Source: a virus (lineage: Duplodnaviria > Caudoviricetes). From it: a stretch of DNA of 64,000 bases. Shown piece by piece: positions 42,483 to 64,000 of this stretch. Below the pieces are notes generated by a model. That model saw only the letters and a program-made list of their open reading frames with translations, was not told the origin of the DNA and did no database searches. Where the stretch lies: the IMG/VR virus record IMGVR_UViG_3300028591_000188, positions 1 to 64,000 of that record, one strand, 5' to 3'. Numbering within the stretch: the first letter of the stretch is position 1; each line of letters opens with the position of its first letter. A program made the position numbers and the translations under genes.

Positions 42483-43775
42483 TTAAAGTTTTTCTTGTAG
42501 GTCAAAAATTAAACTTTCAAGCACTTTTCTGGTTTCTGAATTTGTATGAAGTCCTTTTGTTCTCTTTATCAATGCTTTCATCTGTTCCTCACTTGGCTTC
42601 CAATGGTTAGGCTTAATGGATTTGAGCCAGGTTTGATATTTTGTTATATCATCTTGTAAACACCCAGCAAATTGCCTGTATCTCTTTGCTCCAGCACAAA
42701 TAGCAATTAGGTGGTTAATTACATCTTCATCCTCTTCACTCCATTCTTGCTTTGATTTAGGCTGAACACGGTCTTTGAGGGATTTGAGCCAATCTATGAA
42801 ATATTTCTTGATATAGTCAGGACTATCAATCGTCTCAAATATTTTATTGAGATTATCTGAATTTTCAATTATCCACTTTACACTATTCAAGTTCTTGCTA
42901 TCCTCTTTGCTCCAAGAAGGTTTCTGCTCTACAAGTTCGTAGTAATCTTGAAACTCTATGTTTACAAACGAATGGCTGTTATTGCATACATAATATCCAT
43001 CTTCTATCTTTTCAATGGTCATCGGAAATACGGTGTTCTCTCCTATTTTATGGATGGTATCGCCAATTTTAAACTTAGGAGTAGGTTTCTGCTCACCTTG
43101 CTTTTCAATCTTATTCAACTCTTTCTTCTCAACATTCCACTCATAACCTGATTCTTTAATCTTTTGGAATAAGAGGTCACGCTGTTCTTTGGTTGCTGGA
43201 GTAACATCATTTGGAATACAAATAGAACTATTAACAACTACACAATTTTCGTTATAATTTAAATTATTGCCAATATAACACGAATTACCATCTTTGTAAA
43301 TCCACAATAATTTACAGCAATGAGAATAAAGAACATCTCCATCCTTTGCATCTTGGATAGTCCAAAGATGCGCATTTTCATCCACAGTTACATATTCTAA
43401 TGATGTACTCAAACCATTTTGGTCAATTAGTTCGTAGCCACATCCGTTATAGTTGACCTTATAGCATTTGTTTTGCCAAACTATCCACTGCCCATTTTTA
43501 AACTTTGGTTCAACTTTATTAGCAAGTTTATTCTCACCTTGCTTTTCAAGCCAAGCAAGACATTTTTCTTTGTGTATTACACACATGTTGTCTTTAATAG
43601 ACTGAATAATTTCTTTCCTTATCCTCTCGTCCTCGGACTCCTTGAGTTCGGGGAAGATGTTTTCTAAATCCCAAACATGATAAAGTCTATCATTTCTGCC
43701 GTTGGGTAAATCGGTAGCAAGTTTTCTTGCTCTTTCAAGAGCTTCTTCATATAATTTTTTGTAATCTTTACTCAT
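42483..43775 (-). CDS. Modular repeat protein (430 aa)
   Basis: KQGE x2, PKFKxG x2, WSxED x2 and WKPSEEQM modules; WTIQDAKDGDVL. Confidence 0.8.
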   Translation of the reverse strand: MSKDYKKLYEEALERARKLATDLPNGRNDRLYHVWDLENIFPELKESEDERIRKEIIQSIKDNMCVIHKEKCLAWLEKQGENKLANKVEPKFKNGQWIVWQNKCYKVNYNGCGYELIDQNGLSTSLEYVTVDENAHLWTIQDAKDGDVLYSHCCKLLWIYKDGNSCYIGNNLNYNENCVVVNSSICIPNDVTPATKEQRDLLFQKIKESGYEWNVEKKELNKIEKQGEQKPTPKFKIGDTIHKIGENTVFPMTIEKIEDGYYVCNNSHSFVNIEFQDYYELVEQKPSWSKEDSKNLNSVKWIIENSDNLNKIFETIDSPDYIKKYFIDWLKSLKDRVQPKSKQEWSEEDEDVINHLIAICAGAKRYRQFAGCLQDDITKYQTWLKSIKPNHWKPSEEQMKALIKRTKGLHTNSETRKVLESLIFDLQEKL

Positions 43776-43776
43776 A

Positions 43777-43920
43777 TTAAAATGGTGTTTTTAGTCCTTT
43801 TGAATATGCTTCAAAATATAGTTTTTGTGTTTCTGTTAGATTATTGAACCATTCATCAAAATACCTAATATATTTAGGATGGACAGTTTTTCTCCATTCA
43901 TTATATAAATATTCCTTCAT
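43777..43920 (-). CDS. Small protein, 47 aa (not in track)
   Basis: MKEYLYNEWRKTVHPKYIRYFDEWFNNLTETQKLYFEAYSKGLKTPF*; ends 1 nt before the next ATG. Confidence 0.7.
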   Translation of the reverse strand: MKEYLYNEWRKTVHPKYIRYFDEWFNNLTETQKLYFEAYSKGLKTPF

Positions 43921-43939
43921 ACTTCTTATAAAATTAATA

Positions 43940-44112
43940 AACACAAGTATCCTAACTCTTCTCCATACATTTCTATATGGTTAAATAAATGGTTACACAC
44001 TAAGCTCGCCATCCAGTAACTCAAAGTTTGCTGTAGCCGACCCGTCACACATATTTTTTGAGTGGCCAATCTCAATAAGGTTCGTTGCTCTCGGCATAGT
44101 AATACTTGTGTT
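43940..44112 (-). ncRNA. Candidate structured ncRNA (~173 nt), family unrecognised
   Basis: Terminal stem AACACAAGUAUU/GAUACUUGUGUU; inner stems GCCGA/UCGGC, UUGAG/CUCAA, CAG..AACU-UUG-AGUU..CUG, GAUGG/CCAUU and CCAUAUA-GAAA-UGUAUGG. The G-U wobbles only work on the minus strand. Confidence 0.6.
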
Positions 44113-44129
44113 ATAATAGACTTTTATTA

Positions 44130-45032
44130 TTAAAAGTCACCATAATAAACTTGACAACATAAGATACCTAAATCTCTCCACATCTTCACTACTTTATCTC
44201 TGTCATCAAATACACACACTACATTGTATTTAGGTTGTATGTATTCAAAATACATCTCCTTCTTTACAATATCATCAGACCTATAGTCATTATGTTTCCT
44301 CATATAAAGCTGATGTTCTCCAAAACCATTGTCTTCCAACCATTTCTGAGTAACATCACGAGAATCTTCGCTTCTTCCTGAGAAGAAGATTATCTTATAG
44401 CATTGTGAAAGACTATTAAGAAAAATTTTCATTCTAGGGTCAAAAGTATCTTCTGATGCTTTATCATAATCAAAAGGACTTCTACCATTATGTAATGCTA
44501 TAGTACCATCTATATCACATAAGATAATACTTTCCTTATCTGAACTTGGCAATGTTATAATTCTATCATCTGTATAATTATATAGAAGTTCTGGAAAATA
44601 AGCTCTAAAGAATTTCCTCATTACCTTTTCTCCAACCTTATCTTCCCTATTGTTATCTCTTTCAAGAGCCTCTTTATAAGAGATTTTAAACAGTTTAAAT
44701 TCTATATCAGCAGCATACATACCAGCAATTCTATTCCATTCTTCTATGGCTTTTGGATTAAGATTAGTTGCATCTATAATAACATTTAGGTCATAATCTA
44801 ATGCAGACATAACAGCATATGCTTCTAATCTATCTATATACTTTTCTTGGCTTGGTAGCCAATAGATACCCCTAGCTTTACGCATAGAGTCTCTATTGAC
44901 TATCACCCAATTAGTATGTTCAGTAGCCAACTTTCTAGCAAAAGTGCTTTTACCAGATGCTGGCACACCTTGTAAGACAAGAATTTGTCTCTTGCCATTA
45001 ATATCTAACTTTCCTATATCAATGTTTTCCAT
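44130..45032 (-). CDS. pseT: Polynucleotide 5'-kinase/3'-phosphatase (T4 PseT-like)
   Basis: N-terminal P-loop GVPASGKST and IIDATN; C-terminal HAD motif CDIDGTIA and FDDR. Confidence 0.88.
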   Translation of the reverse strand: MENIDIGKLDINGKRQILVLQGVPASGKSTFARKLATEHTNWVIVNRDSMRKARGIYWLPSQEKYIDRLEAYAVMSALDYDLNVIIDATNLNPKAIEEWNRIAGMYAADIEFKLFKISYKEALERDNNREDKVGEKVMRKFFRAYFPELLYNYTDDRIITLPSSDKESIILCDIDGTIALHNGRSPFDYDKASEDTFDPRMKIFLNSLSQCYKIIFFSGRSEDSRDVTQKWLEDNGFGEHQLYMRKHNDYRSDDIVKKEMYFEYIQPKYNVVCVFDDRDKVVKMWRDLGILCCQVYYGDF

Positions 45033-46438
45033 TAGTTATTGTCTTCAATGTTTGCAATTCCTTTATCAAGCTCTTCACTTTCTTTTCCAAGAAATCTAAA
45101 GCTCTTAAGTTTAACTGCATTAGGTGTCATATTATCTACTTTAATTACTATGCCTTCATGAGGTACTTTATTCTTGCAATCAGGAGAGTCAAGTTCCATA
45201 TAGAAGTTCTTGTCATCTGCTAATTTGTCTATGAATGCATCATTCCAATTATTAGAATCTTTAATTTCTGGATAAAGGTCTGATGCTTTTCCATAATACA
45301 GTTCAACAACAGGCTCTAAACCATTGTTTTTACACCAATATTGCACTTCTTTTGGAGATAATTCAAATACTTTACCATCAGCGTTAGTAATAGTAATTCT
45401 GTATACAATTATCCTAAAGTGTTTGTTTATGGTATATTTCTCTCCTTCTTCAGGCGGTAAACACCCATAATCATAATCTTTTTGTATATAACCTCCAGTA
45501 GGAAGGAATCCTACTATTTCATAATATAAGGTATAACCTTTTGGAATTAATGAAGAAAGAACTTTATTAGCTTCTCCCCATACATCACATTTGTAATATC
45601 CAAGGCCTACAGACTTATTATAATATTTATTCTTTACAACAGTTCTTGAAGCATAGACATTATCATACCTATAGTTATTGTCTACATCCACAATCTTATT
45701 TTCTTTATTAAACAAATTGTGAATTCTGCATACAATCTTATCTATCCAAGATTTAGGAAACTTACATATCACATTTGCAGAAATTGCAGATGTACCATGA
45801 AACTTACTACTAATATGAATAATATCATCCTTTTGGATTGCATAAGGATTCTTTCTTAGTTGGGCTGTATCATAATGGAATCTAAATTGTCCTTCAACAA
45901 GTTTATCATATTTCTTTACATTGGCTCTTTCTTTAGGTTCATTTGGACCGTGAGTTCTTTGCTCAATTATGATATACTTCTTGTTAATCCAAATCTCTTT
46001 ACCATTATGCTCTACAGCATCAAACTCTTTGTTTATACAAGACTCTTCATCATCTATTTTCTTATTTACAGAATCCATTAACCAGTTCTGAAGAACTTCA
46101 AAAGGCAATAAGAAACCTTCAGAAACCATTCCTTTAAGTTTTATTGCCTTTACTCTTCCATTGTCTTCAAAGAAACCTGTTTTCTCAGGATTTGAGTTTA
46201 GGTTACTGTGTCTATATAAATTTGCATAAGACAGTAGATTGGAATTAATCTGGCTGAGAGCAGGAAAATATATATAAACACCTTCCTTTTCACCAATACC
46301 TATAATCATATTGTAGCCATCTACCTTACATACCTTAAGCTTGGTTACTTCTGGATTAGGATGTGGAAAAAAGTCTTTTATTTCAACAACCTTCGCCAAA
46401 TAATTCACACTGGCATTCTTTGTTTGGATTAATTTCAT
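45032..46438 (-). CDS. ATP-dependent RNA ligase (N-terminal OB-like domain + nucleotidyltransferase)
   Basis: LAKVVEIKDFFPHPN N-terminus; motif I-like KFHGTS; YEIVG; HEGIVIK; KLKSFRFL. Confidence 0.8.
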   Translation of the reverse strand: MKLIQTKNASVNYLAKVVEIKDFFPHPNPEVTKLKVCKVDGYNMIIGIGEKEGVYIYFPALSQINSNLLSYANLYRHSNLNSNPEKTGFFEDNGRVKAIKLKGMVSEGFLLPFEVLQNWLMDSVNKKIDDEESCINKEFDAVEHNGKEIWINKKYIIIEQRTHGPNEPKERANVKKYDKLVEGQFRFHYDTAQLRKNPYAIQKDDIIHISSKFHGTSAISANVICKFPKSWIDKIVCRIHNLFNKENKIVDVDNNYRYDNVYASRTVVKNKYYNKSVGLGYYKCDVWGEANKVLSSLIPKGYTLYYEIVGFLPTGGYIQKDYDYGCLPPEEGEKYTINKHFRIIVYRITITNADGKVFELSPKEVQYWCKNNGLEPVVELYYGKASDLYPEIKDSNNWNDAFIDKLADDKNFYMELDSPDCKNKVPHEGIVIKVDNMTPNAVKLKSFRFLGKESEELDKGIANIEDNN

Positions 46439-63032: not shown

Positions 63033-64000
63033 CGTTTTGTTACATACAAGCTCTTTATCTTGTACTCTCCTTCTTTCAAAGGAGTATCGGACTATATCAT
63101 CACTTTGTATCTCTACAAAGGCAGGGCACTCTTGTCTGATTTATTGTTTAAGCTACTCATCAGTTAGTCTCTGAACCTTCTACATACTTTTATGCTTTTC
63201 TGTAGCTTGGCTGCTGATTGGCATAGATAGCAAATCCTTAGCTTTCCAGCAATTCACCCTGTTTATTGTGGCCAATGATTTTATAATTCATTTCAGGACA
63301 TACAAATTCTTTTATAATATCTACAAACTTGTTATAGTCTTTTTGTATTAAATACAATATTTCTTTATCTTTATTTTTATGTATATGTACAGTAAGACCA
63401 AAATTCTTAATCATCATATCTTGTAATTTAAGTTGACTATTATGATTAAAACCGTTTGTACTAAAGTAAGCTCCTGTTGGATGATGTATTGCTCCATCAT
63501 CCATATACCATATAGCTAATCCTATAGGACCTAATTCATATATAGTATCTGGAACTTCTTTCTTGGGATTATACCAATCTTCTCTATATTTATTAAAAGA
63601 TTGGTTTACTTTGGTAACTATTTGACAATATCCATTGTCTTTAATAATTCTTCCATTTATTATTCCGTTTCTGTAAGAATTTGTACGTTCACTATACTTA
63701 ACGTGAAGTCCACTTTGTTCAAACAGTTTATACTTATGTAATACATATTGTTTTTGAACTAGACTGTGCCTTACTACCAAAATACAATTTGTTCTCTTTC
63801 TTATTATAGAACCATCTCCTAACATTGAACCTAAAATAAGTTGATTTGCCATAGGAGATATTTCTATAGGAGGTTGAGTACATAATATTTTGTTTCTTAA
63901 GGCAAGTTTCTCTGAAAAAGAGAAAGTTTTAATATTTTCTCTTTCAATAAAATCTCTCATATCTTTGAGAGGTTCATTAAACATTGTAGATAAATTACAA
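63033..64000 (-). mobile_element. Group I (IA-like) intron with homing endonuclease, 5' end outside window
   Basis: P AATTGCTGGAAA (63243-54), Q AATCAGCAG (63211-19), R GTTCAGAGACTA (63165-76), S GATATAGTCC (63089-98), P3 CAGGGT/GCCCTG, and 3' end ..TAACAAAACG. Confidence 0.92.
63238..63984 (-). CDS. LAGLIDADG homing endonuclease (two-motif type)
   Basis: ILGSMLGDGSI and LAIWYMDDG; the frame stays open to the window edge, so the true start may be upstream. Confidence 0.92.
   Translation of the reverse strand: MFNEPLKDMRDFIERENIKTFSFSEKLALRNKILCTQPPIEISPMANQLILGSMLGDGSIIRKRTNCILVVRHSLVQKQYVLHKYKLFEQSGLHVKYSERTNSYRNGIINGRIIKDNGYCQIVTKVNQSFNKYREDWYNPKKEVPDTIYELGPIGLAIWYMDDGAIHHPTGAYFSTNGFNHNSQLKLQDMMIKNFGLTVHIHKNKDKEILYLIQKDYNKFVDIIKEFVCPEMNYKIIGHNKQGELLES

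Follow-up and report, generated by a model that had tools for sequence, protein, structure and literature searches.

The gap that follows the polynucleotide kinase/phosphatase (Pnk) gene of a crAss-like phage carries, as comparison with its relatives indicates, a real, strand-specific structured non-coding RNA of about 185-195 nt with a narrow distribution. Twelve distinct copies, with scores of 211-231 bits under the covariance model R1, were recovered from metagenomic relatives; they are at least ~90% identical to one another and belong to one narrow clade. These copies keep the structure on a single strand, do not keep a reading frame, constrain their unpaired bases, occur once per genome and behave as an optional cassette. 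The preliminary description of this DNA had proposed both an unrecognised strand-specific structured RNA and a dedicated trio of this RNA with the RNA ligase and Pnk encoded beside it. The former stands, whereas the latter was not borne out, and the element is of interest as an orphan structured RNA of crAss-like phages.

Locus and proposed fold

The window analysed here covers the initial 64 kb of an IMG/VR viral contig of 72,385 nt. Its family A DNA polymerase is closest to those of Crassvirales (Kolpuevirus, cr116_1, IAS virus and crAss001; 36-42% identity), and the source is a rumen-type crAss-like phage in which the element is co-oriented with the replication-module genes, all genes from ~18 kb onward lying on the minus strand. 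From the Pnk stop codon to the next ATG at 43920 there are 209 nt, and the core of this gap has a G+C content of 41-47% vs ~23-30% in the immediate flanks, as the preliminary description had noticed. A replication origin at the element was considered and rejected, as no change in GC skew occurs near 44 kb.

The genes on both sides of the gap are listed with the parts of the element in Table 1. The PF09414 match of the RNA ligase is confined to residues 294-440, with a long N-terminal half bearing no assignment, and the 468-aa protein retrieved no sequence match in the PDB. The downstream 47-aa ORF is also found 3' of the element in L003, L043, L049 and L053, and is not found there in L025, L044, L023, L051 and L052. 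Beyond it, the 430-aa downstream protein (window 42483-43775, minus strand) belongs to a family with a common N-terminal module and variable C-termini, with further members in L025 (6458-7672), L029 (6317-7180), L053 (4989-6089) and L057 (4446-5411). The module reads M-x-Y-x-x-x-Y-K/E-E-A-L-E-R-A, then FPEL-x-ESEDERIRK, then WLEKQGE, and the family has no match in Pfam, PHROG, the PDB or named phages.

Table 1. Parts of the RNA element and its neighbouring genes in the window.
Feature	Coordinates	Strand	Remarks
Whole RNA element	43930..44124	-	includes the optional outer helix P0 and a UAU/UAUU internal loop
P0, 5' strand	44119..44124	-	AAAGUC; partner 43930-43935, 5/6 pairs in the window
P1, 5' strand	44101..44112	-	12 nt; partner 43940-43951
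P1, 3' strand	43940..43951	-	
P1b, 5' strand	44097..44099	-	CUA; partner UAG 43952-43954; invariant in all copies
P2 domain	44036..44095	-	GCCGA 44091-44095 with UCGGC 44036-44040, enclosing P2a
P2a hairpin	44058-44075	-	UUGAG/CUCAA; 8-nt loop holding the palindrome UGGCCA
P3 hairpin	44014..44033	-	CAG...CUG, inner AACU/AGUU; essentially invariant
P4 hairpin	43988..44013	-	GAUGG/CCAUU plus two inner pairs
P5 hairpin	43963..43980	-	7 bp, GAAA tetraloop
Pnk (polynucleotide kinase/phosphatase, T4-type)	44130..45032	-	300 aa; upstream neighbour in the window; PF25109 7.9e-45; PF13671; phrog_505 4.8e-84
RNA ligase, divergent	45032..46438	-	468 aa; phrog_968 2.8e-41; PF09414 27.3 bits, just at cut-off
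Downstream ORF (MKEYLYNEW...)	43777..43920	-	47 aa; start 19 nt after P1

All the helices named in the preliminary description were located by inspection on the minus strand, where it had placed them, and model R1 matches 43934-44118 at 229 bits. P1 comprises 12 bp including one U.G pair and, together with P0, the internal loop and P1b, makes up a terminal rod of ~21 bp in total, which recurs in most contexts. We propose that P2, P3, P4 and P5 would be arranged around P1b as a five-way junction. The 9-mer ACAGCAAAC (44026-44034) lies mostly within P3. A pseudoknot between GCCA and UGGC, suggested earlier, found no support, its bases being already paired in P4. A K-turn-like fit was also seen between GCAACGAACC (44081-44090) and GGCGAGC (44004-44010) on the minus strand, with the C-stem, the 3-nt bulge, the tandem G.A and two G-C pairs of the consensus. 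This K-turn was rejected, as it competes with P4 and has an A at the essential G in L003, and the fit is read as chance or as an alternative conformer.

The comparison of folding energy with shuffled sequences, set beforehand as a possible refutation, went against the single-sequence fold. The minus strand has a minimum free energy (MFE) of -42.0 kcal/mol (z = -1.17), 21 of 200 shuffles folding equally well, and the plus strand does better than the minus strand (z = -2.73). Perfect 11-bp inverted repeats spaced by at most 250 nt number 11 in the window vs a mean of 13.6 in Markov simulations. The MFE fold retains P1, P1b, P4 and P5 and differs in its core from the earlier one, which evaluates at -34.5 kcal/mol, or -38.4 kcal/mol with extra pairs: in the MFE core, GCCGA pairs with UUGGC of the P2a loop and CUCAAAA with UUUGAG. 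The core fold (the P2 domain) has therefore two alternatives. Since the fold of the single sequence is not above chance, the case for structure rests on the comparison with relatives, which does support it.

Conservation among relatives

The copies were gathered by several routes. A search with the Pnk protein gave two IMG/VR loci and seven metagenome loci, further contigs were found by searching with the spurious ORF that gene callers put on the element, and one additional copy was reached via a Pnk homologue. When the element and its surroundings were compared by blastn with 50,697 named phage genomes, only a 79-nt match in Pnk-coding sequence was returned. IMG/VR was also scanned with three exact patterns and a gapped one; once checked with nhmmer and the covariance model, the matches comprised only one relative and chance matches. 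In 185,579 prokaryote genomes, an exact 21-mer search gave no match. Neither the genome of the phage nor the relatives retrieved had a second copy.

In alignment A5, whose 11 distinct rows (the 12th copy, L053, being left out) were fitted to the model and are so biased toward its structure, 98.6% of the 505 pair cells are standard pairs, a share that falls to 30-42% when the partners are slid by 1-3 columns. Five pairs show changes on both sides, and the observed covariation score was reached by 2 of 500 column shuffles. Pair 16/170 of P1 occurs as A-U (4), G.U (2) and G-C (5), and pairs 142/153 and 144/151 of P5 as U-A, U.G and C-G each, so that these three pairs span the A-U, G.U and G-C states. 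Changes at pairs 8, 9, 10, 17 and 18 of P1 are one-sided, with pairing retained. The inner pairs of P4 change from C-G to U.G and from G.U to A-U, its outer five pairs being invariant. In P2a, pair 45/60 is U-A in five rows, A-U in three and mismatched in three, which supports this helix weakly. The seven mismatched cells comprise these three, two C.A at pair 11/175 of P1, one in P5 and one in P3, the latter from a contig at 2.7x coverage.

P2, P3 and the outer part of P4 are invariant, and the informative helices are only P1, P5, inner P4 and, weakly, P2a. Because the rows are 11 distinct close sequences from one narrow clade, the power to detect covariation is low. Nevertheless, pair-preserving and compensatory changes exceed the controls, as would be looked for in any conserved structured RNA, and the covariation check suggested in the preliminary description came out in its favour for P1, P5 and inner P4. 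About ten pair types are G.U, that is, C.A on the opposite strand; therefore, the RNA is in the sense orientation of the operon (minus strand), which confirms the orientation earlier deduced from G-U pairs.

The constraint on the element could be compared with that on the adjacent gene in five genomes having both the element and Pnk. Only 6 of the 81 unpaired element columns vary (7%), as do 16 of the 92 paired columns (17%) and 22 of the 71 four-fold synonymous sites of Pnk (31%). The unpaired columns are thus about four times less variable than the four-fold sites (Fisher p = 2.6e-4). Drifting, compensated stems with frozen loops and junctions are the signature expected of a specific tertiary fold or of binding surfaces.

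An internal 34-aa ORF was checked for conserved coding, and none was found: neither its frame nor its sequence is kept among the relatives. A 1-nt deletion in an A-run shifts the frame in L003, and a 1-nt deletion near P4 does so in L025, L023 and most others. Across contigs, the ORFs called on the element have lengths of 34, 55, 56, 59, 65, 66, 73 and 123 aa.

Genomic setting and possible functions

The neighbours of the element vary among relatives. Pnk is the upstream neighbour only in the window and in L043, in which the element starts ~17-18 nt after it; the spacing of 18 nt given in the preliminary description holds for these two and fails in all other contexts. The upstream neighbour is a 59-aa ORF in L025, L023 and L053, a terminator with a 55-aa membrane ORF in L003, a 110-aa ORF in L044-L047 (the flank of L048 matching it), other ORFs in L050-L052, and tRNA-like hairpins preceded by an HNH endonuclease gene in L049. 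On the downstream side, three unrelated kinds of neighbour are found. The element is always in sense orientation, intergenic and 19-35 nt before the next start codon, and wherever the longer context is known it lies at most ~1.3 kb from the RNA ligase (Rnl)-Pnk pair. There is no element within 3-5 kb in L024, L028 and L054-L057, which have the same polymerase/Rnl/Pnk arrangement and a Pnk 87-94% identical, nor in the contig set P0025 from a distant clade (Pnk ~60% identical), in which Pnk is followed by ThyX. From these varied neighbours and the close relatives devoid of it, the element can be regarded as an optional cassette in a gene-shuffling region, near the repair genes as a rule and not bound to them. 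The three-part RNA repair system put forward earlier is not supported by these observations, six of the relatives having the Rnl-Pnk pair without the element, though a looser functional link may exist.

The P0 strands, AAAG(C/U)C and G(G/A)CUUU, are able to pair in ~10 of 12 contexts with little covariation, P0 being missing in L023 and L049. They are also the base of a plain terminator hairpin after Pnk in L003, L024 and L028. As these strands are common to terminator hairpins, the element looks like an RNA gene mounted on a cassette-ending hairpin. As a side observation, a gene-end module, in which a triple stop precedes AAAGCC and a terminator hairpin, occurs at L003 4900-4935, L024 2075-2105 and L028 5900-5935, and window 44119-44132 is comparable to it. 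This module marks cassette boundaries 3' of Pnk, where small ORFs are swapped between near-identical phages, and these boundaries are reminiscent of those at which the hyperplastic regions of T4-like phages recombine.

The element belongs to no Rfam family, and its family is new with respect to Rfam and to the literature searched, in which no such RNA was described in crAss-like phages. The Rfam 15 models, covering riboswitches, ribozymes, sRNAs, Y RNA, ROOL/GOLLD, HEARO and the group I intron, gave no match to the element at gathering level; the sole match in the window is a group I intron at 63067-63326 on the minus strand (RF00028, 80.8 bits, full model). At E <= 10 on 43700-44400, no match went beyond the outermost bases of the element, the matches being snoRNA-like noise (13-18 bits) located either in the flanks or on the other strand, and no known class of self-cleaving ribozyme matched. 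Rfam gave no match in L043 or L049-L052 either. ARAGORN called no tRNA or tmRNA at the element, in the window or in the short contigs, and no T-loop motif was seen by inspection. The preliminary description, which had recognised no riboswitch, ribozyme, tRNA or tmRNA, is in agreement with these covariance models and with ARAGORN.

Several specific candidates were also tried and rejected. Read as a permuted or split tRNA, the element itself lacks D- and T-loop signatures. A Y RNA or YrlA lacks an Rfam Y-type match, a tRNA-like domain and a Ro gene: Ro/TROVE (PF05731) had no match in the 72-kb phage record, which is 56% complete, the control being positive in Deinococcus radiodurans and Bacteroides thetaiotaomicron. 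A retron msr-msd or other reverse transcriptase (RT)-linked RNA was rejected, as PF00078 is absent from the phage record (control positive); the flanking ORFs have no Pfam RT domain. For a riboswitch, there are three unrelated downstream gene kinds, no terminator-like site on the minus strand and no conserved masking of the start codon, the pairing of the 3' arm of P1 with the start codon being seen in the window and absent in L003.

The reading we prefer, quite possible if still short of probable, is that the operon transcript is cut at the long terminal rod, so that a stable RNA acting in trans is set free. We infer transcription, excision, stability, action in trans and the existence of a partner from the features described above. 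The terminal rod would act as a stalk for processing and protection, and host RNases, either double-strand-specific or of the tRNA type, would free the stable RNA from the polycistronic transcript. Once freed, the RNA would work in trans by contacting a protein or a second RNA with its invariant single-stranded loops and junctions, and two RNA copies could pair by way of the palindromic UGGCCA loop. An accessory for host takeover or counter-defence would fit the optional presence of this cassette among shuffled genes better than a core function would. Nevertheless, some findings run against a trans-acting RNA: the MFE fold disagrees with the proposed core, the single-sequence fold is no better than shuffles, P0 is absent in L023 and L049, and the strings in common with the tRNA region (see below) are short (E ~0.01-0.2). 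If it were a stable trans-acting RNA, it would add an RNA player to crAss-like phage biology, tractable for structure work and pull-downs.

A cis-acting mRNA element, either a structured 3' end or intercistronic module that would terminate, process or stabilise the upstream message, or a riboswitch-like or protein-binding leader controlling the downstream genes, is in our opinion somewhat unlikely. The constant sense, intergenic position 19-35 nt ahead of the next start codon suits it, as do the P0 strands AAAGCC/GGCUUU, which are those of the terminator hairpin after Pnk in element-less relatives, the two invariant candidate partners of GCCGA, which could act as a switch, and the protein family YKEALERAK...FPEL-ESEDERIRK, usually encoded shortly downstream. 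However, neither neighbour is constant, with three unrelated kinds of gene downstream and a variety upstream, the downstream protein family is also present without the element (L028, L057), only 2-4 U follow P0 with no terminator-like site called on the minus strand, and the start-codon-masking pairing of the window is absent in L003. Moreover, the ~80 invariant unpaired bases would not be needed by a simple stability hairpin. If the element were only an mRNA end-structure, it would be a minor annotation point. We hold it highly improbable that there is no RNA function at all, the element being a selfish or neutral inverted-repeat DNA cassette or a young sequence that mimics conservation. The presence/absence polymorphism and variable insertion context, the identity of at least ~90% among all copies and the frequency by chance of inverted repeats of such size could all be explained in this way. 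In contrast, substitutions are concentrated in the stems, and pairing is kept via G.U on one strand only, which argues against DNA-level repeats. The unpaired bases are also four times more conserved than adjacent Pnk synonymous sites in the same genomes, and the element is single-copy in the genome.

Quite unlikely, too, is a dedicated partner of Pnk and the RNA ligase, whether substrate, tRNA-nuclease decoy, scaffold or circularised product. The element directly follows Pnk (~17-18 nt) in the window and L043 and, in every case with a longer known context, has the Rnl-Pnk pair within ~1.3 kb, and P3 can be given a 7-nt loop, CUUUGAG, similar to a UUG anticodon loop. The Salmonella rsr-yrlBA-rtcBA operon, moreover, is a precedent for non-coding RNAs inside an RNA-repair operon. 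Nevertheless, other genes, even a terminator, stand between the element and Pnk in most relatives, six relatives with the same pair and the distant contig set have no element, and the element of L049 has tRNA-like sequence and an HNH gene in front of it. Instead of the 5 bp of an anticodon stem, P3 has an irregular stem, and neither a tRNA or Y RNA match nor a Ro gene in the phage record was found. A new class of self-cleaving ribozyme or ligand-binding aptamer, with the conserved junction as active site or pocket, has in our estimate a low probability. Invariant junctions and loops combined with variable, compensated stems are found in ribozymes and aptamers, the multi-helix junction has a GAAA tetraloop, and self-cleavage ends could be healed and sealed by Pnk and the ligase. 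However, even at E <= 10 there is no match to a known ribozyme or riboswitch model, no hammerhead core was seen by inspection, an HDV-like topology does not fit, and there is neither a consistent gene association nor a mark of a cleavage site. A new functional RNA class working with the phage healing-and-sealing enzymes, as a self-processing RNA circularised by Pnk and the ligase or as an anticodon-nuclease decoy, is very unlikely. In the decoy version, host anticodon nucleases would be drawn off the Gln-type suppressor tRNA needed by a recoded phage; if such a class were real, kinship of the element with the tRNA-like units at the genome end and in L049 would point to an RNA-processing pathway needing its own ligase.

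Resemblance to phage stable RNAs and tRNA-like units

Few phage-encoded structured RNAs of obscure function are known, and each has opened questions on phage-host RNA conflict. For such questions, the useful traits of the element are its compactness (~185 nt), its sharply conserved junctions, its position in a cassette region beside tRNA-repair genes and the motifs of tRNA-like units that it contains. The T4 species 1 and 2 RNAs (rnaC, rnaD), within the T4 tRNA cluster, are ~120-140 nt long and highly structured, with paired 5'/3' ends, and are cut from longer transcripts; they are dispensable and their function is still obscure. The element resembles them, by description only, in being phage-encoded, structured, with paired ends and near tRNA-type sequence. 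Unlike them, it is larger, would have a five-way junction and is mostly found in the replication module instead of the tRNA cluster. ROOL and GOLLD, large orphan RNAs of phages and prophages, are often located near phage tRNAs and have been reported to self-assemble. Like these, the element is phage-borne and optional, with a complex conserved fold of obscure function and a tRNA vicinity, but it is three to four times smaller and has no Rfam match. Self-pairing through the palindromic UGGCCA loop would be possible by analogy with their self-assembly, which is pure speculation.

The YrlA Y RNAs of rsr/rtcB operons are also comparable, as non-coding RNAs beside RNA-repair genes with an end-to-end stem and a multi-helix domain above it. 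In contrast to YrlA, the element has no Y RNA match, no T-loop or tRNA-like domain and no Ro/TROVE gene, and the repair enzymes here are Pnk and an ATP-dependent ligase instead of RtcB. Finally, theta ribozymes, which are HDV-like and have a link to tRNA processing in recoded gut phages, are minimal nested double pseudoknots of ~50-60 nt located at most 5 nt from a tRNA end (PMC10879173). The element is likewise a small structured RNA in a stop-codon-recoded gut phage. However, it is three times larger, has another topology and does not match the HDV family.

The element has two exact 12-mers around ACAGCAAAC in common with two small units in the tRNA region of its own genome (E ~0.01 each), and shorter colinear end strings are common to the element and the stem wrapping a split tRNA-like gene (E ~0.2 and above). 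These short strings are not proof of homology. Together with L049, they may tie the element loosely to phage stable-RNA genes, which would suit the preferred reading, as clusters of such genes occur in phages, for example those of the T4 and ROOL/GOLLD RNAs with tRNAs.

Some observations on the tRNA-like sequences themselves can be added. In L049, a 1-kb contig, the stretch at 540-760 upstream of the element holds an HNH_3 ORF, a T-arm with a 3' acceptor-like strand and a unit with a 7-bp stem, with no ARAGORN or Rfam call. In this unit, a T-loop-like hairpin comes before a D-loop-like hairpin, a swapped order that might indicate a permuted tRNA-like gene. Beside tRNA-Met (L022 11645-11823, minus strand), a tRNA-like gene is interrupted after the D arm by ~49 nt, and its 3' half lies inside a 9-bp stem whose strands (AAGUAUUACU and GAUACUU-N-UGUU) resemble the ends of P1. 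Beyond the window, four tandem units of 56-74 nt are found at L022 12033-12345 on the minus strand (genome 72032-72344). In each, the 7-bp terminal stem begins with G.U, A-N-ACAGCAA(A)(C/U) comes next, and the unit ends in U-G-(U/A)-U. One of them (L022 12179-12251), for which ARAGORN makes no call, folds into a cloverleaf that includes a T-arm-like hairpin.
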